Below are positions 1-17,015 of a DNA stretch of 17,015 nt, piece after piece; position 1 is the stretch's first letter; the number at the start of each line of letters is the position of its first letter. The notes below the pieces were generated by a model, which had not been told where the DNA came from, made no database searches, and was given only the letters and a program-made list of their open reading frames with translations. Origin of the DNA: an uncultured bacterium (GTDB taxonomy: Bacteria; Lernaellota; Lernaellaia; Lernaellales; Lernaellaceae); assembly GCA_964534375.1 (NCBI GenBank), contig CAZHPN010000138.1, positions 1 to 17,015 of the forward strand, given 5' to 3'. Position numbers and translations under genes: made by a program.

Positions 1-291
<291 letters not shown>

Positions 292-294
292 AAG

Positions 295-363
295 AGTGGT
301 CAGCGGCCAGTGGTCAGCAACCGGCCGCGCATGCTGGCCACTAGCCACTAGCCACTGACCACT
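295..363. repeat. Inverted arrays of 7-bp tandem repeats (potential hairpin) in the mreB-mreC spacer
   Basis: Left arm AGTGGTC AGCGGCC AGTGGTC AGC (295-318); 14-nt spacer; right arm GCT GGCCACT AGCCACT AGCCACT GACCACT (333-363), made of the reverse-complement unit. Confidence 0.85.
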
Positions 364-373
364 TTGGGTGCCC

Positions 374-3614: not shown

Positions 3615-4755
3615 GACCGCCACCGTCTACCAGAGCCCGGACCGCAAGTTCACGGGCCGCATCGATCGCCGGCTGATCGCCAATTTCAATTGGACGCTGC
3701 TGGCGATTTTCGCCCTGATCCTGATCGCCGGCCTCGCCAATCTCTACAGCGCCACGCGGCAGGACGTGCACCACGACAATCGCTTCCTGCTGCAGCTCGT
3801 CTGGATTTTCGTCGGGCTGGTGCTGATGGCGCTCGCCTTTTCGATCAATTATCAGCTTTACAAAAACGCCGCGTTTTACGTGTTCGCCGCGGCGTTGCTG
3901 ATGCTGGCGGCGACGTTCGTCATGGGCTACGTCGCGCACGGCGCCAAACGCTGGCTGATCCTCGGGCCCGTGCGCTTCCAACCGAGCGAGCTGGCGAAAC
4001 TGGCGGTCGTGCTCGCCCTCGCCCGGTTCTTCGCTGAGAACCCGACCGACGAAGGCATGGGCCTGTCGGACCTGCGCTGGCCGCTGGCGATCGCCGGGGC
4101 GCCGATCGCCCTGGTGCTGATCCAGCCCGACCTCGGCACGGCGATCATGCTGGCGTTCATCGCCGCGACGATGATTCTGTTCGTCGGCGTGCGGCCGCGG
4201 GTGTTGCTCGGCGCCGGCCTCGCCGCGGCGGCCGCGGCCCCGGCGATGTATTTCTTCGTGCTCAAGGAATTTCAGCAGAAGCGCATCCGTACGCTGTTCG
4301 ACCCGAGCCTCGACCCGCACGGCGCCGGCTACCATATTCAACAGTCGCTGATCGCCATCGGCTCCGGTCAGTTGTTCGGCAAGGGCTGGGGCCACGGCAC
4401 GCAGGCCAGCCTCGAATTCCTGCCCGAGAAACACACCGATTTCATCTTTTCGGTGCTCGCCGAGGAATGGGGCTTTGTCGGCGGCCTGATCGCGTTGGCG
4501 CTGTTCTTCGCGCTGATCGTCTGGTGCATCAACATCGCCATGGAATCGAAAGACCATTTCGGCTGCCTGCTGGGCGTCGGGCTCGCCGCCTTCATCTTCT
4601 GGCACGTCGCCGTCAACATCGGGATGGTGCTCGGCATCCTGCCCGTCGTCGGCGTGCCGCTGCCCTTCATGTCATACGGCCGGACGTCGCTGCTGACGAT
4701 GATGATCGCCGTGGGCATGCTGCTGAACATCTCCAGCCGGCGGTATATGTTTTAG
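3598..4755 (+). CDS. rodA: Rod shape-determining SEDS glycosyltransferase RodA
   Basis: GAKRW, FQPSELAK, QPDLGTA, GYHIQQSLIAIGSG, FLPEKHTDFIFSV, GVPLPFMSYG. Follows mrdA. Exact start codon uncertain. Confidence 0.96.
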   Translation: MRTQSKTATVYQSPDRKFTGRIDRRLIANFNWTLLAIFALILIAGLANLYSATRQDVHHDNRFLLQLVWIFVGLVLMALAFSINYQLYKNAAFYVFAAALLMLAATFVMGYVAHGAKRWLILGPVRFQPSELAKLAVVLALARFFAENPTDEGMGLSDLRWPLAIAGAPIALVLIQPDLGTAIMLAFIAATMILFVGVRPRVLLGAGLAAAAAAPAMYFFVLKEFQQKRIRTLFDPSLDPHGAGYHIQQSLIAIGSGQLFGKGWGHGTQASLEFLPEKHTDFIFSVLAEEWGFVGGLIALALFFALIVWCINIAMESKDHFGCLLGVGLAAFIFWHVAVNIGMVLGILPVVGVPLPFMSYGRTSLLTMMIAVGMLLNISSRRYMF

Positions 4756-4839: not shown

Positions 4840-4867
4840 ATCGCTGTTCACTGTTCACTGTTCGCTG
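4840..4867. repeat. 7-bp tandem repeat (TTCACTG-like x4) overlapping the 3' end of the SGNH gene
   Basis: ATCGCTG TTCACTG TTCACTG TTCGCTG. The same unit recurs at 15847-15881. Confidence 0.8.
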
Positions 4868-5963
4868 ACCGCAGGTACTCCGGGTGTTCTCGCAGAATGT
4901 CGCGCAGCGCGTTGGCGACGATTTCCGTCGCCAGCCGATTGGGGTGCGTGGCGTCGTTGCAGGTGGTGTACGTCGCCGCCGGATTGGGCGTCTGGGCGCC
5001 GAACGCGGCGCGGCGCTCGGCATAATCGCGCACAAAATAAGGGGAGAGTCGAAAGACGGCGATGTGGCTCTCTTGGCCCAGGCGCTCGATCTCCGTTTCG
5101 CCGGTCGCCGGCACGAGATTGTCGGCTTCATTCGTCAACGGGCGCGATTGCACTTCGAATATATCCGTTTTCGAAAAATACGGCCAAAAAGCGATAAAGG
5201 CTTTGAAGTGATATTCGTCGGCCAGGCGCCGCAGCCGCGGCAAGCCGCCGCCGGCCCGGTACGCCGCCAGCAGGTTCAGGTGTTCCGCCCTCATGCGGCG
5301 ACGAACGATGAGGTAGCGGAACAAATGCGACCGGTACGCCCATTTGAGCGGGACAATTCCGAACGGCGCGCGAAAATAATGGCCGATCTGCGAATTGACG
5401 AAGACAAAATCGTGCCGTTCGAACAACAAGATCACGAGGTCGGGCGAATATTTCACGCCTTTGGTCGCCAGCAACTCCAGTTCGCTGACCAGGCCGTAGC
5501 CGCCAATGCCCATGTTCAACACCTCGATCGACGACGGATCGAGTTTCGTTTCGAGTTTGCGCGAAATCGTGTCGTTCAGGTCTTCCACGCCGTGAGCCGA
5601 GACGTCGGAGTCGCCCAGCAGGATAATGCGTCGGATGCCCGGCGGCTTTTCCCACGTGCGCTCCACATCGCGCTGCCCGTGCGAATTGATGAACGGAAAC
5701 GACTCCTGCAGATCCGGGTGATCGTGGTCCTGGTAGCCGTTCTTGAACACGTAGCCAAGCAGCGGGTTGTCCGAGAGTTGAAACGCCGATTTCGACTTCG
5801 CCGTGTCGATGATCGCGACGTGCCCGGCGAGCCCGGCCCGCCGCACCGCGAATTCGGCGAGCGCGAGACCCACGAGCGTCGCCGCGAGCACGAGCGCCAG
5901 CAGCGCCGGCAGCAGGCGCAGACGCACGCCGAAAACATGCCGGGGCGCGCTGCGACGCGCCAT
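4848..5963 (-). CDS. Membrane-anchored SGNH/GDSL hydrolase-like protein
   Basis: N-terminal TM ending LAEFAVR; INSHGQRD; block I RIILLGDS; block II VLNMGIGGY; block III PDLVILLFERHD; block V DATHPN. ATG directly follows the upstream gene's TAA. Confidence 0.8.
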   Translation of the reverse strand: MARRSAPRHVFGVRLRLLPALLALVLAATLVGLALAEFAVRRAGLAGHVAIIDTAKSKSAFQLSDNPLLGYVFKNGYQDHDHPDLQESFPFINSHGQRDVERTWEKPPGIRRIILLGDSDVSAHGVEDLNDTISRKLETKLDPSSIEVLNMGIGGYGLVSELELLATKGVKYSPDLVILLFERHDFVFVNSQIGHYFRAPFGIVPLKWAYRSHLFRYLIVRRRMRAEHLNLLAAYRAGGGLPRLRRLADEYHFKAFIAFWPYFSKTDIFEVQSRPLTNEADNLVPATGETEIERLGQESHIAVFRLSPYFVRDYAERRAAFGAQTPNPAATYTTCNDATHPNRLATEIVANALRDILREHPEYLRSANSEQ

Positions 5964-6962
5964 TTACGGCTCCAGCGGCAAGGCGGCGCCGCATATGGCG
6001 CAACGCCCGTCCGCGGTCAGGCCGGCGCGGTCGACCGCGTAGCCGCGGCGGCGCACGGCGGCGGCGCCGCAGGCCGGGCACTGCGTATCCGCCGCGCCGG
6101 GAATGTTGATATTGCCGACGTAGACATAGCGCAATTTGGCGCGAGCGATCTCGGCGGCGCGCTCGAGCCGCGCGGCCGGCGTCGGCGGCGCGTCCCATTC
6201 GCGATTGGGATAATAGCGCGAGAGGTGCAGCGGCAGATCGGGCGAAACGCCGGCTTGCCACTCGACCAGTTCGGCGAGTTGCGCCTCGCTGTCGTTGGCG
6301 TCGGTCACCAGCAAATTGGTGGTCTCAACCCGCACGCCGGCGCGCCACGCGGCCTCGACGTTGCGGCGCACCGGCGCGAGGCGGCCGCCGGTCAGCCGGC
6401 GATAAAACGCGTCGTCGCCTTTGACGTCGACGTTCATCGCGTCGACGCAGCGGCACAGTTCGTCCCACGGCCCGGGTTCGAGGTAGCCGTTGGTGACCAG
6501 CACCGTCTTCAAGCCGCGGGCGCGCAGCAACGGGGCGCAGGCGAGAATGTACTCGAACCAGACCGTCGGCTCGTTGTAGGTGAACGCGAGGCCGAGCGAG
6601 CCGCGTTCGCCCGCGCGCGCGACGATCGTCTCGGGCGGCGCGTATTCCTCCGCCGCCCGGCCTTCCGACAAATGCCAGTTCTGGCAGTACTTGCACGACA
6701 GGTTGCAGCCGTTGGCCCCGATCGAAAAGATCGACGCGCCCGGGTGAAAATGGTGCAGCGGTTTTTTTTCGATCGGATCGAGCGCCGCGGCGGCGATCAG
6801 GCCGTACCGCGCCGCGATCAACTCGCCGCCGTCGTTGGCGCGGTGGCCGCAGAAGCCGGCCTCGCCGTCTTGAATGACGCAGTGGCGCGGGCAGAGTTCG
6901 CAACGGCAGACGCCGCCGGCGCGCGCCGTCTGAAAGCGGGCGATGAGGCGCGGCGGCTGCAT
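5964..6962 (-). CDS. amrS: AmmeMemoRadiSam system radical SAM enzyme (PFL-activating-enzyme-like)
   Basis: CELCPRHC...GFCGHR, DPIEKKPLHHFHPG, radical SAM GCNLSCKYCQNW (CxxxCxxC), FTYNEP, LVTNGY, YVYVGNI, C-terminal CPACG and CAICG. Start at ATG 6962 (MQPPRL), 8 bp after the upstream stop. Confidence 0.92.
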   Translation of the reverse strand: MQPPRLIARFQTARAGGVCRCELCPRHCVIQDGEAGFCGHRANDGGELIAARYGLIAAAALDPIEKKPLHHFHPGASIFSIGANGCNLSCKYCQNWHLSEGRAAEEYAPPETIVARAGERGSLGLAFTYNEPTVWFEYILACAPLLRARGLKTVLVTNGYLEPGPWDELCRCVDAMNVDVKGDDAFYRRLTGGRLAPVRRNVEAAWRAGVRVETTNLLVTDANDSEAQLAELVEWQAGVSPDLPLHLSRYYPNREWDAPPTPAARLERAAEIARAKLRYVYVGNINIPGAADTQCPACGAAAVRRRGYAVDRAGLTADGRCAICGAALPLEP

Positions 6963-6970
6963 TCCCCGGC

Positions 6971-9900
6971 TTATTCGGGCGCCGGCGCGCAGCAGCGGAA
7001 GCCGATCAGGTAGCTCTTGGAACTGGGCGCGGCCGACATCCGCACCGCGCACCGGGCGCCCCAGTCGGCGTCGTCGACGCCGCCGCCCTTGAGGATCGGC
7101 GAGCCCTGCCCCGGCGTTCCTGTCCATTCGCGCGCGGCGCCGGACATATCATAGATGCCGAAAGTCGAACGGCAGCCGGCCGCCTGCCCGGACGCGGTCA
7201 GGTAACGCTTCTGGCCGTCGGCGATCTGCGTCGCGCAGACGTTCGGCTTGTATTCGTTGCCGTACGGATACCGCTGATTGCCGGGCCCTTTGCAGGCGCG
7301 TTCCCATTCGGCTTCGGAGCACAGCCGCTTGCCCTGCGACTCGCAACTGGCCTCCGCATCCTGCCAGGCGATGTTTGTTTTCGGCGGCGCCCCCGGCTTG
7401 TTGGGATATTCGTAGAGATCCACGCAATACGCCTGGACGAGGGTTGGCGTGTTGGTTTTTTCGCCGGACGTGCGCAACGGGTCATCGGGCGAACTGCCCA
7501 TGCGGAACGAGCCGGCCGGGATGTAGCGCATGCCCGTCGGGCAGGTCTTGGCGACGGCCGCCGCGGGCGCCGGGACCGGCGTAGCCGCCGCCGCTTGTTC
7601 CTTCGCGCTCTGGGCCTTGGCGCGCAGCCCGGCGAGCGCGGCGTTGTTCGGGTCGGCGAGCAACCCGTCGTCGGCCGCGGCCATGGCGTTATCCCACTGC
7701 GAGTTCTTGATGCCGGTCTGCGCGTCCTGGGTCTGGCGGGCCACAATGTCCTTGCGCGCTTTGGCCGCCGCGTCGTTGGTCGGCTGAATCCGCTCCAAGT
7801 CCTCGATCGTCGACAGCGCGCAACTGCCGGCGGGCCTCACGTAGACTTTATGCTTGATGTACCACTGCAATTGGGTGGTCAGCTTGGCAAGCCGTTGCGG
7901 ATCGGGTTGGCTCCCCAACCCGGCCTGCGCCTTGGCAAGATATCCCGCGAAGGCGGCGTCGGTCGGGCGAATCTGCAAGCCCTGCTGCGCCAATTCAAGC
8001 GCCGGCGCATATTGCTGATTCGCCAGCGCCTGATCGGTGCGCGCGGCGAGATCCTTCAGCATCGTGCGGCGGGCTTGCTCCGGATAGGCGTTTTGCGCGT
8101 CGAGCTGTTCGATCTGTTTCACCAGCGCCAGCGCGTTTTCCGCCGCCGGTTTGACGTACTGCTTCGTGGCGATCAACCCGTCGGCCTGGGCGACCAGCGC
8201 CGCAATCTTTTCCGCCGCCGACGGCGCAGCCGGCGCAGCCGGCGCTTCGGGCGACGGCTCGGGCGCGGCGGCGGGCGGGGCCGCCTCGACGACGGGCGCG
8301 GGCGGCGGCGCTTTTTGCACGGGCGGCGGCGGATTCGCGCCGTTGAACCAGCCTTCCTGGTAGCCGAAAAATCCGGCGATCGCGGCGCCGGCGAGAACGA
8401 TGATGAGGGTCGCGACCCATAGCGCGCGGCGGCCGGTCGGTTTGGCGACGTGCTTCGGCGGTTCGATCCGTCTGGCCGGCGCTGGGGCGACGTACGGCGC
8501 GGGCGTTTCTTCCAGTTCCCTGGCCGATACATCCTTGTGGGCCAGCAAATCCACCAAATTGACCGGCTGGGACGCGGACGGCTGCGGCGCGCGACGGTCG
8601 TGCTTGAATTCGGCGGCAATGGCCGCCCCTTCGGCCTGCGCGTGTTCGACGGCGGAGAATTCCCGCGGCGCCGGCTCGGGCGCGATCGCCGGTTCGGCGG
8701 GCGGCTCGGCTTTCGCCGTCCATTCCTCGGCCGCGGGAGCTTCGGCGACAGATTCGGTTTCGGCGTCGATCTCCGGCGGCGCCGCGAGCGGCTCGAGCGG
8801 TTCGCCGAGCGCCTCTGCCAGCGGCGGCAGTTCTGGTTCCGGCGCGGTTTCGACCGTCGCTTTCAGCGGCGTCTCGATAGCCGGCGCCGGCTCGGGCTCC
8901 GGCGCAACCGGCTCGACGGCGTGCGCCAGCGCCTCGGATTCAACAACAGATTCCGGCGCGGCCGTCTCGATCTCCTCGGCGGGCAACTCGGCGGCCGGCG
9001 ACGCTTCGATTTCCGACGCGACAGGCTCGATGGCCTCCGCCGCCGCTTCGGACGCAACGACGGCTTCCGCCGCCTCCTCTGCCGGCGCGGCAAGCCACTC
9101 CGCGTCGAACGGCGTTTCGGGTTCCGACGGGGCCGGCTCGACGGTTTCCGCAAGCGGCGCGGTTTCCGCGGGAGTCTCGATTTCCGGCAAGGCCGGTTCG
9201 GCCACCGCCGCGATCGGCTCGGGGGCGACGACCGGCGCCGCCGCCTCGGTCGCTTCGGCGAGCCACGCCGCGTCGAACGGCGTTTCGGGTTTCGGCAAAA
9301 CCGGTTCGGCGGTTTCCGCCGGGAACGCGGACGGCTCGGCGGGCTCGGTCGTTGCGTCGACGCCGGGCAAGGCCGGCTGTTCGGTCGCCGGTTCGTCGAA
9401 CAAATGCTCGCCGAGTTGCCGGTCGGCCGGCGCGGGCATTTCCGGCGGCAATTCGGCCGGCGGTTCGAGCGACGGCAATGCGGATTCTTCGGCGAACAGC
9501 GGCTCGTCGACGGCGGGCGCCCGCGGCGGGGGCGTCGTGAGCGGCGCCTCTTCGCCGAACAGGCCGACGCCGGCTTCGGACAATTCCTGCGCCAACGCCT
9601 CGTTTTCGGCGGCCGACGGCTCGTGCGCCGCCGCGCCGGATTCGACATCGGCGAACATTTCGGCCGCCTCGGCCGCCGACGCGCCGACGTCCGCCGCGAC
9701 CTCCTCGAACGTCGCCGCGCCGCTTGCCGCTGTTTCCGCGACGGCGAAAACGCCCTCGCCGTTGGTCGGCGCCGCGCCGCGATCGAGCGCTTCGCTGCGG
9801 GCGATGGCGCCGTCGAGCAGATGCGCGAAGGCGGCGTCTTGCTCGGCGGGCCGCGCGGCAGCTTCGGCGCTGAGATCGACTGCCGGGACGGCGGGCGCCG

Positions 9901-10729
9901 CGCCGGCGATTTCGACGAGCCGTTCGCGCAACTCGGCGTATTTGGCGAAACGCTGTTCCGGCTTGGTCGCCATCATCTTGGCGAGCAGGTCATCCCACTC
10001 TTCCGGCACGGTGCGGTTGACTTGCGACGCCGGGCGGAAGCCCTTGCGCGGCGGCTTGCCGGTGAGGAATTCGTACAGCAGCGCGCCCAACGAATACTGG
10101 TCGGCGCGCGCATCGATTTTGCCGCCGCAGCCGACAAATTCGCAGGCCAGATAGTAGTACGGCGAGCCCGCCGAAAGTTGCAGGCTGGCGTACTTGCTGA
10201 AACTCAGCAGACAGCAAACGCCCATGTCGGTCAGATAGAATGGCGAGTCGTCGGGCAGCGGCCCGCCGGGCGGCATTTCGGCGATCAGCACGTTCGAGGG
10301 TTTGATGCCGCCGTGCACCGTCCCGTGCGGCAACTGTTCGAGGATGGTCACGATCCGTTCGGCGATCAGACCGGCGGTCGCCGGATCGCCGAGGCGGCCG
10401 TCGTCGGCCATGGCGTCGAACAGTTTCTGGAGGCTTGATCCATCGACGTACGGCAGCTTCAGGAACTTCATGCCGTCCGCTTCGCCGATCTCCAGCGGGC
10501 GGACGATGGCCGGATGCAGCGCCGTTTTCTCCGCGTAGACTCCCTTGAGTTTCTCGACGCCGATGTGCGCGGGAATGACACGCGGGAGAAACACCTTCAG
10601 CGCGTAGTACTTCCCGTTCTCGATCACACGGAAGACCTCGGCCATCGGCCCTGAGCCGACAAACTCCTCGACCGCGAATCGGCGCGCGAATGTGGAGCCG
10701 ACGGATATACCGGTCTTTGTGGCGGCCAT
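6971..10729 (-). CDS. Large membrane protein: Ser/Thr kinase-like (probable pseudokinase) domain, acidic Pro/Ala/Glu linker, TM helix, helical repeats, FGE-sulfatase (SUMF1) domain
   Basis: ATG 10729 with GAGGGGG RBS. Kinase motifs VGSGPMAEVF, YALK, VHGGIKPSNVL, LTDMG, ADQYSLGALLYEFLTGKPP. TM at ~8360-8425. C-terminal CPTGMRYIPAGSFRMGS, GKRLCSEAEWERACKG, GIYDMSGAAREWT, GFRCC are typical of FGE-sulfatase domains. Confidence 0.9.
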   Translation of the reverse strand: MAATKTGISVGSTFARRFAVEEFVGSGPMAEVFRVIENGKYYALKVFLPRVIPAHIGVEKLKGVYAEKTALHPAIVRPLEIGEADGMKFLKLPYVDGSSLQKLFDAMADDGRLGDPATAGLIAERIVTILEQLPHGTVHGGIKPSNVLIAEMPPGGPLPDDSPFYLTDMGVCCLLSFSKYASLQLSAGSPYYYLACEFVGCGGKIDARADQYSLGALLYEFLTGKPPRKGFRPASQVNRTVPEEWDDLLAKMMATKPEQRFAKYAELRERLVEIAGAAPAVPAVDLSAEAAARPAEQDAAFAHLLDGAIARSEALDRGAAPTNGEGVFAVAETAASGAATFEEVAADVGASAAEAAEMFADVESGAAAHEPSAAENEALAQELSEAGVGLFGEEAPLTTPPPRAPAVDEPLFAEESALPSLEPPAELPPEMPAPADRQLGEHLFDEPATEQPALPGVDATTEPAEPSAFPAETAEPVLPKPETPFDAAWLAEATEAAAPVVAPEPIAAVAEPALPEIETPAETAPLAETVEPAPSEPETPFDAEWLAAPAEEAAEAVVASEAAAEAIEPVASEIEASPAAELPAEEIETAAPESVVESEALAHAVEPVAPEPEPAPAIETPLKATVETAPEPELPPLAEALGEPLEPLAAPPEIDAETESVAEAPAAEEWTAKAEPPAEPAIAPEPAPREFSAVEHAQAEGAAIAAEFKHDRRAPQPSASQPVNLVDLLAHKDVSARELEETPAPYVAPAPARRIEPPKHVAKPTGRRALWVATLIIVLAGAAIAGFFGYQEGWFNGANPPPPVQKAPPPAPVVEAAPPAAAPEPSPEAPAAPAAPSAAEKIAALVAQADGLIATKQYVKPAAENALALVKQIEQLDAQNAYPEQARRTMLKDLAARTDQALANQQYAPALELAQQGLQIRPTDAAFAGYLAKAQAGLGSQPDPQRLAKLTTQLQWYIKHKVYVRPAGSCALSTIEDLERIQPTNDAAAKARKDIVARQTQDAQTGIKNSQWDNAMAAADDGLLADPNNAALAGLRAKAQSAKEQAAAATPVPAPAAAVAKTCPTGMRYIPAGSFRMGSSPDDPLRTSGEKTNTPTLVQAYCVDLYEYPNKPGAPPKTNIAWQDAEASCESQGKRLCSEAEWERACKGPGNQRYPYGNEYKPNVCATQIADGQKRYLTASGQAAGCRSTFGIYDMSGAAREWTGTPGQGSPILKGGGVDDADWGARCAVRMSAAPSSKSYLIGFRCCAPAPE
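9093..9291. repeat. Intragenic direct repeat, 31 bp x2 at 168-bp (56-aa) spacing
   Basis: AGCCACTCCGCGTCGAACGGCGTTTCGGGTT (9093-9123) and AGCCACGCCGCGTCGAACGGCGTTTCGGGTT (9261-9291), one mismatch. Encodes PETPFDA(A/E)WL twice. Confidence 0.85.
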
Positions 10730-10961
10730 TTGTCCCCCCTCGGTTGCCACGAACTGGCGATACATGAAATCACAGTGCGCGTGTTCAAGCAAGCGGCGAA
10801 GCGGCGCCGAAAGACCATGGATTCCAGCCTTTTTTTCGCGGCCCGCACGCGGCGAGCAGCGGCCGCCGTGTTGCGAAAAACTCTGGCGTGGCGACCGACG
10901 GGCGGCTCCGTTTGCCCCTTGCATGAAATCGCGTTCGCAATCCAGTCTTTTCGAGAGAAAG

Positions 10962-11201: not shown

Positions 11202-11217
11202 TGGCACGATCCTTGGA
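11202..11217 (+). promoter_or_regulatory. Sigma-54 (RpoN) -24/-12 promoter
   Basis: TGGCACG-ATCC-TTGGA versus consensus TGGCACG-N4-TTGCW. The -24 box and spacing are perfect, with one deviation at -12 (GG for GC). Ends 43 bp before ATG 11261, which has a GGAGG RBS. Confidence 0.72.
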
Positions 11218-11260: not shown

Positions 11261-11920
11261 ATGGTTGCGTTTTCGGTTTTCTTGTTCTTTCTCGTCGCGA
11301 TTCTCGCCAGCATTCTCTCGGAAATCTGGCATCGCCGGCGCGCGGGCGCGCCGGAAGAAAAGCCGGACGCGGCGACGACCAGTCGTTCGGCGGCGCCGGC
11401 AATCCCGGCCGGCATCTTGTTCAATCGCAGCCACGCCTGGGTGAAGGTCGACAACGCCGCGGTCGCCGTGGGTCTGGACGATTTTGCCCAACGGTTCGCC
11501 GGCCGGATCGACCGGATCGAGATCCCTCGCGTCGGCGCCGACGTCAAAAAAGGCGAAACGCTGTGGCGCATCCATTTCGGCGGACGGTCGGTGACGCAAT
11601 TGGCGCCGATCAGCGGCCGGGTGGTGCAGATCAACCGGATGGTGGCCGGCGACCCGTCGCTCGCCGACCCGGCGTACGAAGACGGCTGGGTGGTGAAGAT
11701 GCTGCCGCAGTCGTTGACTGAAGAGACCTCGCGCCTGCTGAACCGCGACGGCGTCAAGAAGTGGCGCGACATCGTCCGCACCCGCCTGCTAGGCGAAATG
11801 ACGCCGCAATTGGGGCCGGTCGTCGGCGACGCCAGCGAGATCCGGCGCGGCCTCGGCAAGGAAATCGATGCGCAGCACTGGAACCAACTCGTCGATTTTC
11901 TGTTTCACGAAAAGGATTAG
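11261..11920 (+). CDS. Membrane-anchored glycine cleavage H-like protein #1 (no canonical lipoyl-Lys)
   Basis: GGAGG RBS then ATG 11261. N-terminal TM followed by RRR. GcvH-fold motifs SHAWVKV, VGLDDFAQ, LAPISGRVVQIN, DPAYEDGWVVKM. The ESVK lipoylation turn is replaced by HFGGR. Confidence 0.85.
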   Translation: MVAFSVFLFFLVAILASILSEIWHRRRAGAPEEKPDAATTSRSAAPAIPAGILFNRSHAWVKVDNAAVAVGLDDFAQRFAGRIDRIEIPRVGADVKKGETLWRIHFGGRSVTQLAPISGRVVQINRMVAGDPSLADPAYEDGWVVKMLPQSLTEETSRLLNRDGVKKWRDIVRTRLLGEMTPQLGPVVGDASEIRRGLGKEIDAQHWNQLVDFLFHEKD

Positions 11921-11933
11921 GGAAGGAGGAGCC

Positions 11934-12029
11934 ATGTCGGCCATCGGGATTTTGTTGTGCATCGTGTTCGCGATCGCCGCGGATCGTTATCGCGCCGGTC
12001 GCCGGGCGGCCGCCGCCGGGAACCGTTGA
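11934..12029 (+). CDS. Small 31-aa single-pass membrane peptide (below the ORF-track cutoff)
   Basis: Strong RBS AAGGAGGAG just before ATG 11934. Translates as MSAIGILLCIVFAIAADRYRAGRRAAAAGNR*, a hydrophobic segment plus basic tail, and fills the gap within the operon. Confidence 0.6.
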   Translation: MSAIGILLCIVFAIAADRYRAGRRAAAAGNR

Positions 12030-12066
12030 CCCAATTCGCAATTTTTAACAACGGAGGGACAATCCT

Positions 12067-12987
12067 GTGAAGATCAGCCGCCGAAATTTCCTCAAGTCGA
12101 TCGTCGCCGCCGGCGGCGCCTCGCTCGTGCCGCTGGGCTCGAAGGCGGTCGCCGAGCCGAAGTTGGACGGCTATCCGGACCGCTTCGGCTGCCTGACCGA
12201 CGTGACCCGCTGCGTCGGTTGCCGCGCGTGCGAGGAGGCGTGCAACCAGGCCAACAAGCTGCCGAAGCCGGATGTTCCTTTCGACGACCAAACCGTGGTC
12301 GAAACCCAGCGGCGGACTTCGGCCAAGGCGTACACGGTGGTCAATCGGTACGGGAACTCGAAAACCGGCGAGCCCGTGTTCCGCAAGATTCAGTGCAATC
12401 ACTGCAACGAGCCGGCGTGCGCGTCCGCCTGCCTCGTGAAGGCGTACACGAAAACGCCGGAAGGCGCGGTGGTTTACAACCCTGACATTTGCCTGGGTTG
12501 CCGTTACTGCATGCTGGCCTGCCCGTTTTCGGTTCCGGCGTACGAATATGACAATGCCTTTTCGCCGCGCATTCGGAAATGCAGCCTTTGTTTCGACCGC
12601 ATCAAAACGGGCGGCGTTCCGGCGTGCGTGGAGGCCTGCCCGACGGAAACCCTCATTTTCGGCAAACGGAAAGACCTGATCAAAATCGCGCGGGACCGCA
12701 TCGAAAAAGAACCCGATAAATATCTCGACCACATCTACGGCGAGCACGAGGTCGGCGGCACGAGTTGGCTGTACATCTCCGGCGTGCCCTTCGAGCAGGT
12801 CGGGTTGAAGACCGACCTGGGGGACCGCCCGTATCCGGAATTGACGCGCGGCTTCTTGTCGGCCGTGCCGCTGGTGTTGACGCTCTGGCCGGCGCTGCTC
12901 GGCGGCTTTTATCTCTTTTCGAAAACGCGGGACGACGCGGCGGAAACGCGCGAAGCCCGCCCGGCGACGGAGGCGCGGCGCAAATGA
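12067..12987 (+). CDS. Tat-exported 4Fe-4S dicluster electron-transfer subunit, HybA/HmcB/NrfC-like
   Basis: Twin-arginine signal SRRNFLK. Four Cys groups: CVGCRACEEAC, CNHCNEPACASAC, CLGCRYCMLACP, KCSLC...PACVEACP. YLDHIYGEHEVGGTSWLY and a C-terminal TM helix as in HybA/HmcB. GGAGG RBS. Confidence 0.9.
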   Translation: MKISRRNFLKSIVAAGGASLVPLGSKAVAEPKLDGYPDRFGCLTDVTRCVGCRACEEACNQANKLPKPDVPFDDQTVVETQRRTSAKAYTVVNRYGNSKTGEPVFRKIQCNHCNEPACASACLVKAYTKTPEGAVVYNPDICLGCRYCMLACPFSVPAYEYDNAFSPRIRKCSLCFDRIKTGGVPACVEACPTETLIFGKRKDLIKIARDRIEKEPDKYLDHIYGEHEVGGTSWLYISGVPFEQVGLKTDLGDRPYPELTRGFLSAVPLVLTLWPALLGGFYLFSKTRDDAAETREARPATEARRK

Positions 12988-14219
12988 CGCAGGACATCGG
13001 CAAACTTTCCCGAAACGGCGCGACGACGGCCTGGATCTCCGAAAAATTTCTCTTGGGACTGTCGTGGCGGGATTACGTCAAAACGCTGATTACGCCGCTC
13101 AACGCCGCCGCCGGCCTGATCCTGGCGATCGGCCTGCCGTTTATCGTATTGCGATATTGGCGCGGATTGGGCGCGGTGACGGCCGCTTCCGACGACCAAC
13201 CGTTCGGCCTGTTTCTGAGTTGGGGCCTTTTCTCGGGGGTGCCGATGGCCTCGACCGGCTTTCTGCTGGCGACGGCCGTTTACCTGTTCGGGCTGCGCGA
13301 CTACAAGCCGCTGGTGCGGCCGGCGGTGCTGACCGGCTTCGTCGGCTATTTCTTCGCCGTCGTGTTCCTGCTCATCGACCTGGGCCAACCGTGGCGCCTG
13401 CCCTACCCGATGATTCGTTCGTTCGGCACGGGCTCGGTGCTGTTTCTCGTCGCGTGGCACGTGGCCCTGTACCTCTCGGTCCAATTCCTCGAATTTTCGC
13501 CGGCGGTGTTCGAATGGCTCGAAGCGCGGAAGCTGCGCGCCTGGGCGGTCGGCCTGACGCTCGGCGCGACGATCTTCGGCGTGATCCTCTCGACGCTGCA
13601 CCAATCGGCGCTGGGCGCGATGTTCCTGCTGGCGCCGGGCAAGCTGCACCCGCTGTGGTATACGCCCAATCTGCCGGTGCTGTTCTTCGTGTCGGCGATC
13701 TTCTGCGGCCTGTCAGTCGTGATTCTCGAATCGACCGTGATCTACCGCTTGATGCCCAATCGCGTCGATCCGCGCAACTTCCGCGTGATCGACCGGCTGA
13801 CGCTCGGCCTCGGCAAAGCCGCTGCGGTGACGATGTTCGCCTACTTCTGCCTGAAATATCTCTCGGTGGCGCACGATGACAACTGGCGCCATCTGGCCGG
13901 ACCGTACGGGCCGATTTTCCTGCTCGAAACTTTCGGCTTCGTGCTGCTGCCGTGCGTTCTCTACCTCGCGGGCGTTCGCCGCCGCAACGCCTCGGTCGTC
14001 CGGTGGGCGGCGCTGATCACCGTGCCAGGCGTCATTCTCAATCGCCTCAACGTCACGTACCTGGCGCTGAACTGGAACCTGCCGCATCGCGAATTGTTTC
14101 ACGGCCGCGAAATGCTCATCGTCGCCACGGTCGTCACCATTGAACTGCTCGCGTACCGCTGGATCGTCAATCGCCTGCCGGTGCATCGGGAAAGTTCGCG
14201 TTTCGCCGACGACCATTAA
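12984..14219 (+). CDS. NrfD/PsrC-family integral membrane quinone-interacting subunit, HybB/HmcC-like
   Basis: ATGA overlap with the Fe-S gene; multi-TM; GLGAVTAASDDQPFGL, YKPLVRPAVLTGFVGY, DLGQPWRL, LSTLHQSALG, KLHPLWY, GVILNRLNV. Confidence 0.9.
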   Translation: MTQDIGKLSRNGATTAWISEKFLLGLSWRDYVKTLITPLNAAAGLILAIGLPFIVLRYWRGLGAVTAASDDQPFGLFLSWGLFSGVPMASTGFLLATAVYLFGLRDYKPLVRPAVLTGFVGYFFAVVFLLIDLGQPWRLPYPMIRSFGTGSVLFLVAWHVALYLSVQFLEFSPAVFEWLEARKLRAWAVGLTLGATIFGVILSTLHQSALGAMFLLAPGKLHPLWYTPNLPVLFFVSAIFCGLSVVILESTVIYRLMPNRVDPRNFRVIDRLTLGLGKAAAVTMFAYFCLKYLSVAHDDNWRHLAGPYGPIFLLETFGFVLLPCVLYLAGVRRRNASVVRWAALITVPGVILNRLNVTYLALNWNLPHRELFHGREMLIVATVVTIELLAYRWIVNRLPVHRESSRFADDH

Positions 14220-14237
14220 CCGGCGCAGGGAGATTTC

Positions 14238-14975
14238 ATGCACACCCTTTTCGAGTTCATCACCTACACCAAGAGCGTCGAGTATCTGATCGCCGTCGGC
14301 TTTCTCGTTTCGTTCGTCGTCTTCTGGCGCTTCGCCAACGGCGCGAGCGCGGCGCCCGCCCCGCGCACGGCGGCCGCCGGGCTGGCCGGCCGCCTCGGCG
14401 AGTACGTCGGCGGTTTCTTGCTGCCCGAGTCGTATTTCTTCCATCGCGGCCATGCCTGGGTGAAAAACGAGAGCGGCGACCGGGTGGCGGTCGGCGTGGA
14501 CGATTTCGGCCAGAAACTGCTGGGGCGAATCGACGCAGCTTTCCTGCCCCAGGTCGGCGCCGTCCTGTCGCAGGGCGAGCGCGCCTGGACGCTGCACGCC
14601 AACGGCAAGTCCATCGACATGCTGGCGCCGATCGACGGCGAAGTGCTCGCGGTCAACGAAGGCGCCGCCGCCGATCCGTCCGTCATCCAGCGGGATCCCT
14701 ACGGCAAGGGTTGGCTGCTGATCCTGCGCGCGCCGCGCAAACGCGCTTTGCTGCCGGGTCTCTTGTCGGGGATGCTGGCGAAACATTGGCTGGAAGAAGC
14801 GCGCGGCAAATTGTCGCTGAACTCGGGCTACGCGCTCGGCGAGGTCTTGGCCGACGCCGGTCCGGCGCGCGGCGGCATCGCCCAGGCGCTCGATCCCGAA
14901 CACTGGGATCGCCTGGCGCGGGAGTTCTTTTTGACGAATGAGGACGGCGGGGATGAAGCCCGACCGCCCCGCTAG
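14238..14975 (+). CDS. Membrane-anchored glycine cleavage H-like protein #2 (no canonical lipoyl-Lys)
   Basis: GGGAG RBS. N-terminal TKSVEYLIAVGFLVSFVVFWRF TM; FHRGHAWVK, VGVDDFGQKLLG, MLAPIDGEVLAVN, DPYGKGWLL. Lipoyl turn reads HANGK, with Lys one register off. Confidence 0.87.
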   Translation: MHTLFEFITYTKSVEYLIAVGFLVSFVVFWRFANGASAAPAPRTAAAGLAGRLGEYVGGFLLPESYFFHRGHAWVKNESGDRVAVGVDDFGQKLLGRIDAAFLPQVGAVLSQGERAWTLHANGKSIDMLAPIDGEVLAVNEGAAADPSVIQRDPYGKGWLLILRAPRKRALLPGLLSGMLAKHWLEEARGKLSLNSGYALGEVLADAGPARGGIAQALDPEHWDRLAREFFLTNEDGGDEARPPR

Positions 14976-15720
14976 CTTTCACGTGATTCCGGCCGGCGAA
15001 ACGGCGTGCGTCTGGATGCTCGCCGGGGTCGTCTCCTACAAATTGTGCGACCGCGGATACCGCTGCGAGAATTGCCCGCTGGATCGCGAATTGCGCCACG
15101 CGAAGACCGGGCTCGCCGAATCGGCGCCCGACGAGGCGCCCGACGAGGCCGACGGCGCCGCCGCGCCGGCCGGCGGTTCGCTCTTGTTTTTCGCGCGCAA
15201 TCACACGTGGGCGCGGTTCGCGGACGAAGAGCGCGCCGTCGTCGGCTTCGACGATTTCCTCCTGCGGCTGTTCGGCGAGATCGACCGGATCGTGCTGCCG
15301 GCCAAACGCGCGACGGTGCGCCGCGGCGAGCCCCTCGCCATCGTCGTGCAGGGCGCCGACAATTTCGTCGTCGCCTCGCCGCTCTCCGGCACGATCCTGC
15401 GGCTCAACGCGGAAATGCGGCAACATCCCAATTCCGCCCGGGCGAATCCGGCGGCCGGCGGCTGGCTGGCCGAACTCGCGCCGAGCCATCTCTTCGCCGA
15501 AATGGGCGCGTTGCTGACCGGCCGGCGCGCGCTGGCGTGGCAGGAAAACGAAAGCAAAAAGCTGGAGTTGATTGTCGGCACGTTGCCCGCCGCCGAACGC
15601 GAACGGCTCGGGCCGGTCATGCACGACGGCCGCGGCGCCGCCGGCGCCCTGCTCGCGCTCGTCGGCCCCGCCCGTTACGTCAACATTATGCTGTCGTTTC
15701 TTCAGCCGGACGAGCGCTGA
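14953..15720 (+). CDS. Soluble glycine cleavage H-like protein #3 with N-terminal 4-Cys motif
   Basis: Start ATG 14953 (14938 is the alternative). CVWMLAGVVSYKLCDRGYRCENC (C-x12-C-x5-C-x2-C), then NHTWARF, VGFDDFL, ASPLSGTILRLN, GGWLAEL. No Lys at the lipoyl turn (QGADN). Confidence 0.85.
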   Translation: MKPDRPASFHVIPAGETACVWMLAGVVSYKLCDRGYRCENCPLDRELRHAKTGLAESAPDEAPDEADGAAAPAGGSLLFFARNHTWARFADEERAVVGFDDFLLRLFGEIDRIVLPAKRATVRRGEPLAIVVQGADNFVVASPLSGTILRLNAEMRQHPNSARANPAAGGWLAELAPSHLFAEMGALLTGRRALAWQENESKKLELIVGTLPAAERERLGPVMHDGRGAAGALLALVGPARYVNIMLSFLQPDER

Positions 15721-15917: not shown

Positions 15918-16463
15918 TCATCCGCCCGATCGCCGCAGAAGCTCCTCGTAGGTTTTTTCGCACTGCCGGCACATCTCGCGCGACTTGGCGTCGATCTGTT
16001 CGATGATCGTCGAGGGGTTCATCACGCAAAAAGGGTTGAAGCAGTGGATCAGGCCGAAGGCGTGGCCCAGTTCGTGAATCGCTTCTTTGTACAACCGTTC
16101 CGCGAACTGGTCTTCGTCCGGCGGCATGCCGTAGTTTTCGTTGCGCAGCCGAAAGGTGGACATGACGGCCGCGAGGCCGTCGAGTTGCGCCTCGCCGAAG
16201 AGGAAATCGAAGACCGGCACGAACAGGTCCGCTTCCGTGACGCCCAGAATCCTGGCGGCGTCCGGCGGCGGATTTTCGGTCAGCCGGAGCAGAATCGCCG
16301 CGCCGTGATATTGCTGGCGTTGCGGATCGAACGCGAAGGAAATATCCATGGTCGAGCGCGCGACGGCGACCGGCAGGGAGAACACCCGCTGCAGGACCTC
16401 GGGCAGCGAGGCGAGCAGCGGAATCCGCATGGGGCGGATCAGCGACAAATAAATTCGGCGCAT
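15918..16463 (-). CDS. Archaemetzincin family (peptidase M54) Zn-metalloprotease
   Basis: HELGHAFGLIHCFNPFCVM...C-x2-C, i.e. HExxHxxGxxHC-x4-C-x-M plus a terminal CxxC; FDPQRQQY; DLFVPVFDFLFGEAQ. Confidence 0.92.
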   Translation of the reverse strand: MRRIYLSLIRPMRIPLLASLPEVLQRVFSLPVAVARSTMDISFAFDPQRQQYHGAAILLRLTENPPPDAARILGVTEADLFVPVFDFLFGEAQLDGLAAVMSTFRLRNENYGMPPDEDQFAERLYKEAIHELGHAFGLIHCFNPFCVMNPSTIIEQIDAKSREMCRQCEKTYEELLRRSGG

Positions 16464-16468
16464 GCGGC

Positions 16469-17014
16469 TTATTCTCGCAGGCCGTATTTCTTGATCTTGG
16501 CGTAGAGAGTCGCGCGCTCGATGCCGAGCAGTTCGGCGGCCTGGGCGATGTTTCCCCCGGTTTTGTCGAGGATGCGGCGGATGTGCAGTTGCTCCATTTC
16601 CTCCAGCGAATCGACCGCGGGCAGGCAGCCGCCCTCGTCGAAGGGCAGCGACAGGTCCGCCGCCTGAATGACGTCGCGTTTGGCGACCACCATGGCGCGT
16701 TCGATGACGTTGCGCAATTCGCGGACGTTGCCCGGCCAGCGGTAGCGGCCCAGCACCGACAGCGCCTCGTCGGCAAAGCCGGCGATCGGCTTGCCCATCG
16801 ACTTCGTGAACTTGGCCAGGAAATAGTCCGCCAGCAGCGGGATGTCCGACGGCCGGTCGCGCAGCGGCGGCAAGGCGATCGTGAAGACGTTGAGGCGGTA
16901 ATAGAGGTCTTCGCGGAACCGCCCCTCTTTCACCGCGTGTTCGAGGTCGAGATTGGTGGCGGAAATCACGCGAAAATCGGCCGTGATCAGGTTCTCGCCG
17001 CCCAGGCGCGTGAA
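16469..17014 (-). CDS. Sigma-54-dependent transcriptional activator (NtrC/Fis family), C-terminal part; 5' end outside window
   Basis: FTRLGGENLITADFRVISATN, GRFREDLYYRLNV, PPLRDRPSDI, WPGNVRELRNVIERA, and Fis HTH GGNIAQAAELLGIERATLYAKIKKY. Confidence 0.95.
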   Translation of the reverse strand, partial: FTRLGGENLITADFRVISATNLDLEHAVKEGRFREDLYYRLNVFTIALPPLRDRPSDIPLLADYFLAKFTKSMGKPIAGFADEALSVLGRYRWPGNVRELRNVIERAMVVAKRDVIQAADLSLPFDEGGCLPAVDSLEEMEQLHIRRILDKTGGNIAQAAELLGIERATLYAKIKKYGLRE

Positions 17015-17015
17015 T

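Follow-up and report, generated by a model that had tools for sequence, protein, structure and literature searches.

Within the window, i.e., the whole stretch of 17,015 nucleotides that was analysed, three genes for GcvH-like proteins (hereafter GcvHL) bracket two genes for membrane-associated redox proteins, all five being read from the forward strand. The first (11261..11920, +) encodes a type 1 protein of 219 aa, GcvHL-1, with a Pfam GCV_H match; an anchor helix (residues 1-25) followed by RRR precedes the GcvH fold (residues 54-166), and an extension runs to residue 219. Its ATG at 11261 has a Shine-Dalgarno sequence, GGAGG, 6 nt upstream, and its relatives start with the same MV(V/A)(I/L)L helix. 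The second gene (12067..12987, +) encodes a HmcB/HybA-type periplasmic iron-sulfur protein of 306 aa; it has a Tat signal (RRNFLK) and four 4Fe-4S-type Cys motifs, and a helix at its C-terminus (residues 262-285) serves as anchor. It reaches 458.5 bits with the NCBIfam HmcB model (cut-off 420) and 224 bits with HybA, short of the 263 required by that model, and also matches Pfam Fer4_11 and the TAT signal domain (18.9 bits, cut-off 16.7). The third gene (12984..14219, +), whose start ATG at 12984, taken from the ORF translation, overlaps the hmcB stop as ATGA, encodes a HmcC/HybB-type membrane protein of 411 aa of the NrfD family (Pfam NrfD, 65.7 bits), with about 8-10 hydrophobic segments by hydropathy, 426.7 bits for NCBIfam HmcC (under the cut-off of 550) and 199 bits for HybB.

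The two remaining genes of the module encode GcvHL proteins of types 2 and 3. GcvHL-2 (14238..14975, +; 245 aa; Pfam GCV_H and NCBIfam HmcD) is composed of an anchor (residues 2-32), the GcvH fold (69-170), a helical extension (171-235) and an acidic tail. GcvHL-3 (14938..15720, +; 260 aa; Pfam GCV_H), for which Met6 at nt 14953 is an alternative start, carries an N-terminal Cys4 domain, the GcvH fold (residues 85-194) and an extension to residue 260. In the Cys4 domain, C24, C37, C43 and C46 (nt 15007-15075) form the motif C[VI]WM..G....KLC.....C..C, of which C24, W26, M27, K35, L36, C37, C43 and C46 are invariant in 15/15 rows of alignment A3. The junctions are tight: besides the ATGA overlap there are a gap of 18 nt and an overlap of 23-38 nt. 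On the reverse strand follow an archaemetzincin gene (15918..16463, -; peptidase M54, 181 aa; NCBIfam archmetzin and Pfam Peptidase_M54) and the C-terminal part of a sigma-54-dependent activator (16469..17015, -; AAA+ lid and Fis-type HTH) that runs off the window; its full-length relatives combine REC, sigma-54 AAA+ and HTH domains and lie downstream of a HAMP histidine kinase. The HmcB and HmcC genes, the HmcD-like anchor of GcvHL-2, the Cys4 domain and the kinase, sigma-54 and archaemetzincin neighbours had been passed over by the initial annotation.

A sigma-54 promoter-like site, TGGCACGATCCTTGGA (11202..11217, +), stands 44 nt upstream of the start of GcvHL-1, with a single mismatch, in the -12 GC. 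Five such sites were found across the window where 6.2 would be expected, i.e., not above chance; the position of this one and the sigma-54 regulator next door are suggestive. A perfect match to the consensus lies 177 nt upstream of the first module gene in a related locus (L011).

The initial annotation had regarded the three proteins as GcvH paralogues devoid of the lipoyl-lysine, and HMMER alignments and MAFFT counts bear this out. All three exceed the Pfam GCV_H gathering score of 22.2 (72.6, 66.8 and 44.3 bits, respectively), and the AlphaFold2 model of GcvHL-2 (pLDDT 88, pTM 0.74) is superposed by Foldseek on the Thermus thermophilus H-protein 1onl with a TM-score of 0.91 by target and an rmsd of 1.5 Å. 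When the lipoyl column is placed by residue-by-residue HMMER alignment to solved H-proteins, it falls, as had been proposed, on Gly, Gly and Ala: G108 in GcvHL-1 (second Gly of HFGG, nt 11582-11584, against pea 1dxm), G123 in GcvHL-2 (Gly of HANGK, against 1onl) and A140 in GcvHL-3 (Ala of VQGAD, nt 15355-15357, against Escherichia coli 3a7a). The lysine said to be shifted by one in GcvHL-2 is K124, exactly at 14607-14609. The canonical E-S-x-K context is absent around the column in all three.

In one MAFFT alignment, lysine occupies this column in 59/59 short canonical GcvH ORFs (loci L020-L080, excluding L022 and L062 because they are not canonical) and in just two (L008_4950 and L011_956) of the 49 GcvH-like proteins that are associated with the cluster, a set to which the window's three belong. 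An extension-only exhaustive profile search supplied 149 new proteins among its best 150 matches, and of the 78 that are near full length (190-450 aa) three have the lysine. This position of the lipoyl hairpin is free to vary in GcvHL proteins (G, S, D, A, N, E and others) while the core motifs are invariant. Judging from these alignments, the loss is a trait of the GcvHL family, and GcvHL-1 to GcvHL-3 are probably not lipoylated.

A C-terminal extension shared by the three proteins had also been described, with a length of 60-70 aa. The sharing stands, since BLASTP aligns GcvHL-1 with GcvHL-2 (E 7e-35) and GcvHL-2 with GcvHL-3 (E 4e-18) right to their C-termini; the length does not. Past the conserved Pro there are 104, 115 and 113 residues, respectively, against 54-69 (one 80) in canonical GcvH, and the LL..G..A..W helix is the counterpart of the normal C-terminal helix of GcvH, so that the true extension comprises about 45-55 aa. 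The motifs noticed there, LL..G..A..W, G.V..D(G/A)(G) and W..L..F, do correspond to conserved columns in alignments A1, A3, A4 and A5. Across the family the extension is helical, with a nearly invariant D-G-G in the loop between helices, from which the window deviates (GDAS, ADAG and HDGR in GcvHL-1, -2 and -3); its profile retrieves 1680 cluster representatives. In the AlphaFold2 model of GcvHL-3 the fold and the extension have a pLDDT of about 90, and the Cys domain one of 52-63.

Kyte-Doolittle plots place hydrophobic segments at residues 1-25 of GcvHL-1 and 11-36 of GcvHL-2, in agreement with the N-terminal anchors initially assigned to both, and none in GcvHL-3; the model of GcvHL-2 has a helix at residues 2-35. 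The anchor of GcvHL-2 is homologous to HmcD (NCBIfam HmcD, 37.3 bits over residues 2-32, cut-off 34), and its E15-Y16 pair is invariant in alignment A1. A cytoplasmic location of the following domains, suggested from the outset, is supported by the basic residues after the helices and by a relative (P0155) in which a signal peptide and a cytochrome c with four CxxCH motifs precede the HmcD helix and the GcvHL domain, which sets the N-terminus of this same anchor outside.

The module of five genes is found again in 15 of 21 GcvHL loci from many phyla, the record titles naming Gemmatimonadota, Syntrophales, Bacteroidota, Acidobacteria, Eisenbacteria, Calditrichaceae, Deferrimicrobiaceae, Planctomycetota and others. 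HmcB- and HmcC-like genes adjoin the type 2 gene in 15/16 loci where that gene is intact, and none occurs in the 59 canonical GcvH loci. The neighbourhood follows the same partition: a histidine kinase is present in 14/20 GcvHL loci against 2/59 canonical ones, a sigma-54 regulator in 15/20 against 2/59, and an archaemetzincin homologue, within the fetched DNA, in 14/20 against 0/59. Phylogenetically, GcvHL proteins stand apart from canonical GcvH (SH-aLRT 99), with support of 100 for the type 2 clade (16 rows) and of 98 for the module-linked type 3 clade (9 rows); from this tree, the types would derive from an ancient triplication. Fusions add to the picture. A class III cytochrome c lies immediately 3′ of hmcC in L011, and in P0233 a GcvHL domain runs into a cytochrome c7. 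The protein in the type 1 position of L004 consists of anchor, REC and GcvHL, as does P0119; P0130 is REC plus GcvHL, and an ESM Atlas cluster of 58 members has Response_reg and GCV_H each on 100% of them. There are also exceptions: a paralogue trio with neither HmcBC nor regulators (L012), a lone frameshifted copy (L062) and a double-Cys type 3 protein without HmcBC (L015, L017, L018 and L019), adjoined in L015, L017 and L019 by kinase, regulator and archaemetzincin. Thus, the GcvHL domain is not strictly dependent on HmcBC.

Compared with known systems, the module shares with the Hmc (HmcABCDEF) and Nhc complexes of sulfate reducers an HmcB-like part, above the cut-off, followed as in those complexes by parts resembling HmcC and HmcD (order B-C-D). 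Nevertheless, the HmcA cytochrome, the HmcE cytochrome b and the HmcF CCG protein are all lacking in the window, no CxxCH motif occurs in any of its ORFs of at least 60 aa, and HmcC stays under its cut-off, so that this is not the Hmc complex proper. Furthermore, the HmcD helix is here continuous with a GcvH-like domain on the cytoplasmic side, and two more paralogues are present. HybA, of E. coli hydrogenase 2, likewise has a Tat signal and a C-terminal anchor, but hydrogenase genes do not accompany the module's HybA/HybB-like pair.

As for GcvH itself (PF01597; 1onl, 3a7a, 1dxm), the barrel-sandwich fold and the motifs GHxW, G.DDF/Y.Q..G, P..G..N and PY..GW are common to both, whereas in GcvHL proteins the hairpin is variable, about 50 residues are added as a helical subdomain with D-G-G, the N-terminus carries a membrane anchor or a Cys4 domain, and the operon is of hmcBC type instead of one with gcvT/gcvP. 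GcvH-fold paralogues outside glycine cleavage are already represented by LbpA of sHdr sulfur oxidation and by GcvH-L of Staphylococcus and Streptococcus (Foldseek match to 5a35, E 2.6e-07), in which the lysine is strictly conserved and lipoylated, according to PMC6067878 and bioRxiv 10.64898/2026.10.01.755906. Both are soluble, lack the GcvHL extension and have other gene partners. NCBIfam also curates non-GcvH relatives, NF045810 ("GcvH-related protein", Desulfovibrio type) and TIGR03077 ("not_gcvH"); the three proteins are members of neither (23.8-31.2 bits against a cut-off of 150, and 27.8-45.3 against 144). A biotinyl/lipoyl-type barrel without the modified lysine, cofactor-less and sitting on a membrane complex, is found in the N-terminal barrel-sandwich hybrid domain of NqrA/RnfC, and the "lipoyl" domain of HlyD/AcrA-type membrane fusion proteins is the same kind of module. 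We propose this as an analogy rather than an established homology; the structural match to NqrA is weak (8a1y_A, E 0.069, TM 0.21 by query).

Altogether, we favour, with a probability of roughly 0.55, the reading that GcvHL proteins belong, as cytoplasmic subunits that are neither lipoylated nor catalytic and have a structural or regulatory role, to a quinone-linked complex of HmcBC type, and are neither H proteins of glycine cleavage nor lipoyl carriers; no such HmcBC-GcvHL system was found in the literature searched. Gene order and the HmcD homology suggest that the products assemble physically. The core would consist of the Tat-exported, C-terminally anchored HmcB/HybA-type protein with its four [4Fe-4S] clusters and of the quinone-interacting HmcC/HybB of NrfD type, and most likely connects the menaquinone pool with periplasmic carriers by electron transfer, the direction and the partners being presumed. 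In relatives, these carriers would be the small multihaem cytochromes c, adjacent or fused, while for the present module they would come in trans. GcvHL-2 would be held at HmcC through its HmcD-homologous helix and GcvHL-1 by its own N-terminal helix, GcvHL-3 being soluble with a putatively metal-binding Cys4 domain. The barrel together with the family-specific helical subdomain may cap the complex on its cytoplasmic side, in a structural or regulatory capacity; no redox task is evident for this cap, since NrfD-type subunits are not known to hold a cofactor able to pass electrons to the cytoplasm. In relatives, the inserted receiver domain would place the cap under phosphorylation control, and expression of the operon probably depends on the kinase and the sigma-54 regulator encoded beside it.

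These same regulatory links admit, as a less likely reading, a signalling device in place of a respiratory enzyme: an HmcBC-like core would sense how reduced the quinone pool or the periplasmic carriers are, and the GcvHL proteins would be cytoplasmic transducers that communicate with the neighbouring kinase and sigma-54 regulator, the Cys4 of GcvHL-3 being a redox- or metal-sensitive element. The retention of kinase, regulator and archaemetzincin with GcvHL where HmcBC is absent (L015, L017 and L019) and the receiver fusions point in this direction, as do, as leads only, receiver-domain and stand-alone 62-aa protein models found near the Cys domain of GcvHL-3 in an Atlas structure search. However, the simplest view of a two-component system next to an operon is that it regulates this operon, the fusions fit regulation of the complex equally well, the kinases have their own sensors (HAMP after a periplasmic loop; PAS-GAF in L015), and L012 and L014 lack regulators within 8 kb.

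It seems unlikely that the archaemetzincin has the GcvHL proteins as its substrates or dedicated partners, releasing or inactivating them by cleavage, for example between anchor and domain or in the extension. The linkage occurs in most GcvHL loci and in none of the 59 canonical ones, the window's copy keeps the HExxHxxGxxH zinc site as HELGHAFGLIH and scores 155.7 bits, above the archmetzin cut-off of 145, and low-pLDDT flexible linkers follow the anchor of GcvHL-2 (residues 36-56) and the Cys domain of GcvHL-3 (residues 59-79); nevertheless, the gene is the last of the kinase-regulator unit and may work for it, the GcvHL proteins yielded no cleavage motif, and we know of no archaemetzincin substrate.

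A kept prosthetic group, either lipoate or an acyl moiety on Lys124 of GcvHL-2 or another residue, or a non-covalent ligand at D-G-G, would make these proteins carriers, which we consider very improbable. The loop between helices could be a ligand site, and the basic residue that follows the lipoyl column in many type 2 proteins, as Lys124 does, may allow an unusual modification; but this residue is K/R in only about two-thirds of type 2 rows, and is R in GcvHL-1 and D in GcvHL-3, the flanking context is gone, a shift of the lysine by a single residue is reported (Wallis and Perham, 1994) to abolish lipoylation in lipoyl domains, and the window shows no gene for a lipoate ligase or synthase. 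Finally, that these are ordinary or decaying gcvH genes, as the GCV_H matches and the public naming of relatives by JGI and NCBI as "glycine cleavage system protein H" would have it (a mislabelling that had been foreseen), is practically untenable, being contradicted by the lost lysine, by bit scores (48-78) that fall short of the NCBIfam GcvH cut-offs (about 116-117), by the lack of gcvT/gcvP in the window, by the anchors, by the separate clade and, as regards decay, by the conserved extension of so many representatives.

The reading of GcvHL proteins as subunits of an HmcBC-type complex would make them a case of a GcvH barrel put to new use as a protein module without a cofactor, belonging to what appears to be a little-known module of membrane electron transfer in many anaerobic bacteria.

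All three GcvH-like proteins of the window, #1 (11261-11920, plus strand), #2 (14238-14975, plus strand) and #3 (14938-15720, plus strand), score above the 22.2-bit cut-off of the Pfam model GCV_H, with 72.6, 66.8 and 44.3 bits respectively. They are relatives of GcvH by fold, but they are not GcvH by the defining site or by the curated cut-offs: the NCBIfam model TIGR00527 (cut-off 115.85) gives them 57.4, 62.6 and 42.1 bits, NF002270 (cut-off 117) gives 69.6, 78.2 and 48.2 bits, and the lipoyl lysine of the (V/I)E(S/A)xK hairpin is absent from each one. In HMMER alignments to solved H-proteins the lipoyl-lysine column is occupied by G108 in #1 (HFGG), G123 in #2 (HANGK) and A140 in #3 (VQGAD), precisely the Gly, Gly and Ala that the initial annotation had read at these positions, and the lysine that it saw shifted by one in #2 is K124 (nt 14607-14609). 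As a control, a single alignment shows a lysine at this column in 59/59 short canonical GcvH ORFs versus 2/49 proteins of the window's kind; in a separate sample, 78 near-full-length proteins from 149 new top matches of a profile search with the C-terminal extension only, it occurs in three. With no lysine present, a freely varying hairpin and no E-S-x-K context left around it, the three proteins are very probably not lipoyl carriers, as far as sequence can tell. We refer to such lysine-less proteins of GcvH fold as GcvHL, and to the paralogue classes of #1, #2 and #3 as types 1, 2 and 3.

The three paralogues also share a C-terminal subdomain. BLASTP pairs among them extend to the C-termini (E 7e-35 and 4e-18), and the motifs listed by the initial annotation, in the order LLxGxxAxxW, LGxVxxDGG and WxxxxxEF(F/L), coincide with columns conserved across the family alignments. 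Past the conserved proline, the window proteins continue for 104-115 residues, versus 54-69 in canonical GcvH. The LLxGxxAxxW helix is the normal C-terminal helix of GcvH, so that the true addition amounts to about 45-55 residues, and not to the 60-70 initially estimated. An AlphaFold2 model of #2 (35-row alignment; pLDDT 88, pTM 0.74) is predicted to comprise an N-terminal helix (residues 2-35), a flexible linker, a GcvH barrel and a helical C-terminal subdomain (helices 168-174, 178-195, 201-204, 214-218 and 223-230). In a Foldseek search of the PDB, H-proteins lead the matches to this model (1onl, TM 0.91 by target, rmsd 1.5 A), and the extension has no counterpart there. In the model of #3, the barrel and extension reach a pLDDT of about 90, and the Cys4 N-terminal domain 52-63. 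Pfam searches of the Cys N-domains and the three extensions, at E up to 10, returned nothing meaningful, and Atlas searches gave unnamed or GCV_H-labelled clusters only, which serve as leads. A complex prediction in which full-length #3 was scored as partner of the cytoplasmic parts of #1 and #2 (score 0.00, mark 0.32) speaks neither way on binding, including a possible assembly of the three by means of their common extension.

The genes for these proteins belong to a set of five on the plus strand, closely packed and flanked by two minus-strand genes: a divergent one for a Ser/Thr kinase (6971-10924) and a convergent one for an archaemetzincin (peptidase M54; 15918-16463). The order is #1, with a GGAGG 6 nt ahead of its ATG; an HmcB-like iron-sulfur protein (12067-12987); an HmcC-like membrane protein (12984-14219), its ATG and the stop codon of the gene before it sharing the sequence ATGA; #2; and #3. 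The HmcB-like protein scores 458.5 bits with NF045715 (cut-off 420) and has a Fer4_11 domain, a TAT signal and four Cys motifs that can be read in its sequence. The membrane protein matches Pfam NrfD with 65.7 bits (cut-off 25.8) and the HmcC model NF045714 with 426.7 bits (E 9e-128), below the cut-off of 550. Furthermore, residues 2-32 of #2 match the HmcD model NF045712 (37.3 bits, cut-off 34); HmcD is a 38-aa subunit of its own in the Hmc complex, whereas here it forms a fused anchor. A Tat-exported 4x[4Fe-4S] subunit and a haem-free NrfD-family subunit thus make up an NrfD-type two-subunit quinone module. The Hmc complex also contains HmcA, HmcE and HmcF, all three of which the core in the window lacks: no CxxCH occurs in any ORF of at least 60 aa in the six frames of the window, which excludes the multihaem cytochrome c HmcA there, and neither the cytochrome b HmcE nor the CCG-domain protein HmcF was found among the window ORFs scanned, the operon being bounded on both sides. 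For these reasons we call it an HmcBCD-type or NrfCD-type module and not an Hmc complex, and it is quite probable that #1-#3 belong to it.

The rest of the window deserves a brief description. The divergent gene (6971-10924, minus strand) encodes a protein of 1317 aa that starts with a Ser/Thr kinase domain and ends with an FGE-sulfatase domain; between them lie a very long repetitive part rich in Ala, Pro and Glu, a single membrane helix and TPR-like repeats. On the same strand, a radical SAM protein (5964-7127) is followed by a 371-aa ORF that no Pfam model matches (4848-5963); a plus-strand ORF of 709 aa that covers this DNA has no match either and is probably spurious. Positions 1-4755 (plus strand) hold an ordinary cell-shape cluster consisting of mreB (3′ end), mreC, mreD, PBP2 and rodA.

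The family extends far beyond this contig. With #2 as query, 119 relatives besides itself were retrieved, in three classes that mirror the three genes of the window; where they are named, they bear the label "glycine cleavage system H protein", the mislabelling as gcvH that had been foreseen. A profile of the extension only matched 1680 cluster representatives at E ≤0.001 (243 at ≤1e-10), so that, with clustering at 50% identity, no fewer than 1680 clusters of proteins have the subdomain. For #3 a homologue search gave three matches, and its alignment was drawn mainly from genomic loci. A search for longer fused forms of #2 (region 57-235) found none, which is weak evidence, as fusions surfaced by other routes. 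The precomputed Pfam label PF28260 on close type-2 relatives, absent from the Atlas output, indicates that some curated family covers part of them. In a quick-mode maximum-likelihood tree, built without the truncated row L004_4900 and without 41 of the 59 canonical rows, 48 GcvH-like rows part from 18 canonical rows (SH-aLRT 99). The HmcD-anchored type forms a clade of 16 rows (support 100) and the module-linked Cys type one of nine (support 98), while type-1 rows do not form a single clade; the triplication is thus an old event. At the base of the canonical group lies a subgroup of short lysine-bearing GcvH (L020, L021, L027, L045, L056, L069) whose hairpin reads E(T/S)GKW or QSRKW instead of ESVKA. 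As for gene calls, the public version of #3 (P0121, 234 aa, matching 90% of the query at 100% identity) apparently starts at Met27; such a start would remove the first Cys, C24, and the C-x-W-M motif (window 14938-15015), which 15/15 relatives keep. The Atlas copy begins at residue 6, and the longer start fits the family.

A genome scan seeded with a 12-row family alignment (A2) kept 80 loci, 21 with GcvHL (L001-L019, L022 and L062) and 59 with ordinary GcvH, in which linkage was counted by phmmer on stop-to-stop ORFs. Of the 21 GcvHL loci, 15 have genes like hmcB and hmcC next to the paralogue with the HmcD anchor, as do 15 of the 16 with an intact type-2 gene; the 59 canonical loci have none. 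Two gene orders recur: that of the window (type 1, hmcB, hmcC, type 2, type 3), and another with all three paralogues ahead, where the Cys-rich N-domain on the Cys protein is of another kind (CPFLE...C.AFP). The latter domain (KCPFLE...C.AFP.K.IP...C), which takes the place of C-x-W-M on the third paralogue, looks unrelated and has no Pfam match; it is found at L005:6183-7151, L007:4322-5095, L011:968-1981, L012:6504-7208 and L014:6510-7217. Locus L012 carries the paralogue trio without hmcBC. The locus that most resembles #2 (54% identity, over a part of it) is L062, where a lone frameshifted copy (7926-8484) is divided between two frames; neither hmcBC nor a kinase, regulator or protease gene lies near this copy, which may be decaying or reflect a sequencing error. 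Finally, L015, L017, L018 and L019, labelled Desulfobacterales, Desulfococcaceae or "Deltaproteobacteria", have no hmcBC and encode a GcvH-like protein of about 310 aa with two Cys4 motifs (7575-8531 in L015), preceded by an archaemetzincin, a sigma-54 regulator and a kinase of the PAS-GAF type. Its neighbours in L015 also include an HdrD-like CCG/4Fe-4S protein, as well as a pyridine-nucleotide-disulfide oxidoreductase that has Fe-S domains.

Fusions give further indications on topology and partners. The relative P0155 joins a signal peptide, four CxxCH (cytochrome c3/c7 matches), an HmcD-type helix, a GcvH-like domain and the extension. This architecture places the N-terminus outside and the GcvH-like domain in the cytoplasm, in agreement with the cytoplasmic domains behind N-terminal anchors that the initial annotation had suggested, and it points to small multihaem cytochromes as possible periplasmic partners. 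A class III cytochrome c gene directly follows hmcC in L011, and the fragment P0233 runs into a cytochrome c7. Moreover, the first module gene of L004 combines an anchor helix, a receiver domain and a GcvH-like domain, as does P0119; P0130 joins a receiver with a GcvH-like domain, and in a 58-member ESM Atlas cluster both Response_reg and GCV_H are found on 100% of the members. The 246-aa P0201, with an HmcB-like 4Fe-4S region, the last third of GCV_H and the extension, could be a real fusion or else a chimera produced by gene calling or by assembly.

Taken as a package, the reading that we favor, at a probability of roughly 0.55, is that GcvHL proteins are non-lipoylated, non-catalytic cytoplasmic subunits of an HmcBC-type quinone module. 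The HmcB/HmcC pair would act as a periplasm-facing, quinone-linked electron-transfer module, in the manner of HybA/HybB or HmcB/HmcC; HmcC would be the docking site of #2, by way of the HmcD-type helix, and of #1, by way of a helix of its own, and #3 would join both in the cytoplasm. As NrfD-type subunits have no redox cofactor to carry electrons inward, the trio would most likely constitute a non-catalytic structural or regulatory cap, and the receiver-domain fusions suggest that this cap could be a controllable element. The nearest functional analogy that we can name is the N-terminal domain of NqrA and RnfC, a barrel-sandwich hybrid without cofactor; Foldseek gives a weak structural match of #2 to NqrA (8a1y_A, E 0.069).

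A second set of neighbours must also be considered, namely a HAMP histidine kinase, a REC/sigma-54/HTH regulator and an archaemetzincin. Within the fetched DNA they occur in 14, 15 and 14 of 20 GcvHL loci respectively; among the 59 canonical loci, the kinase occurs in two, the sigma-54 regulator in two and the archaemetzincin in none. Directly downstream of #3 the window has the same pair, the archaemetzincin as last gene of a kinase/regulator unit and a sigma-54 activator, whose gene runs off the window so that its C-terminal part is seen (16469-17015, minus strand). The operon is probably under the control of this adjoining two-component system. At 44 nt upstream of #1 lies a TGGCAC-N5-TTGGA site with a mismatch in the -12 GC, its window-wide count being at chance; of 17 sequences, from the window and from 16 related loci, 10 have an upstream site with up to two mismatches, a count with no shuffled control and with several starts guessed; the site is a candidate and a lead only.

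These linkages nourish other readings, three of which are compatible with the subunit reading. In the first, GcvHL would be a signalling device, a transducer to the kinase and regulator; its attraction is that the regulator linkage persists even without hmcBC, regulators and archaemetzincin being kept in three of the four loci with the double-Cys protein, and we deem it rather unlikely. Less likely still, GcvHL proteins might be substrates or partners of the archaemetzincin, which ends the kinase/sigma-54 unit travelling with them in the window and in L001, L003, L005-L011, L013, L015, L017 and L019; we know of no archaemetzincin substrates. That they are carriers with an unusual modification or ligand is very doubtful. 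Ordinary or decaying gcvH genes are hardly credible, and no match to gcvT or gcvP (the T and P proteins) exists among the window ORFs scanned.

The family is also distinct from LbpA and GcvH-L, the lysine-bearing proteins with which, judging by titles and abstracts, the publications found on GcvH-like proteins deal. In the passages available, LbpA has a strictly conserved lipoyl lysine and linkage to shdr genes (PMC6067878), and LbpA/GcvH-L keep this lysine (PMC6067878; bioRxiv 10.64898/2026.10.01.755906), unlike #1-#3, which have none. An LbpA identity was rejected, as the lipoyl lysine is absent and the window has no Hdr-like genes. A term search of the 2021 review of NrfD-like subunits (PMC8076601) gives no occurrence of "lipoyl"; in the literature searched, nothing apparently relevant linked glycine cleavage H proteins with NrfD, HmcD, HybA or archaemetzincin, and no publication on a GcvH-like/HmcBC arrangement was found.

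Altogether, what the initial annotation observed is confirmed and its interpretation supported, with the function inferred, and the finding is larger than was stated at first: the family is widespread, mis-annotated, triplicated and tied to an HmcBC-type quinone module, and both a sigma-54 two-component system and an archaemetzincin are conserved along with it. A bolder reading, which we put forward tentatively as possible but rather unlikely, is that of an undescribed widespread membrane system in which the lysine-less barrel and its D-G-G subdomain, regulated by phosphorylation, would act in the cytoplasm as effector or transducer for a haem-free HmcBC quinone module, wired to its own kinase, sigma-54 regulator and dedicated archaemetzincin. 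If this were true, an ancient lipoyl-carrier fold would have been turned into a signalling or gating domain through which the redox state of the periplasm or of quinone is coupled either with gene expression or with the gating of the complex.

Whatever their precise role, the mislabelling of GcvHL inflates the predicted glycine cleavage and lipoate dependence of anaerobe genomes and metagenome-assembled genomes. The linkage to archaemetzincin may offer an orphan protease family a testable genomic partner and, from a bioenergetic perspective, NrfD/HmcBC quinone modules would gain a new kind of cytoplasmic partner. GcvHL proteins represent, moreover, a clear case of a carrier fold without its cofactor site, triplicated and fused to anchors, cytochromes, receiver and Cys4 domains.
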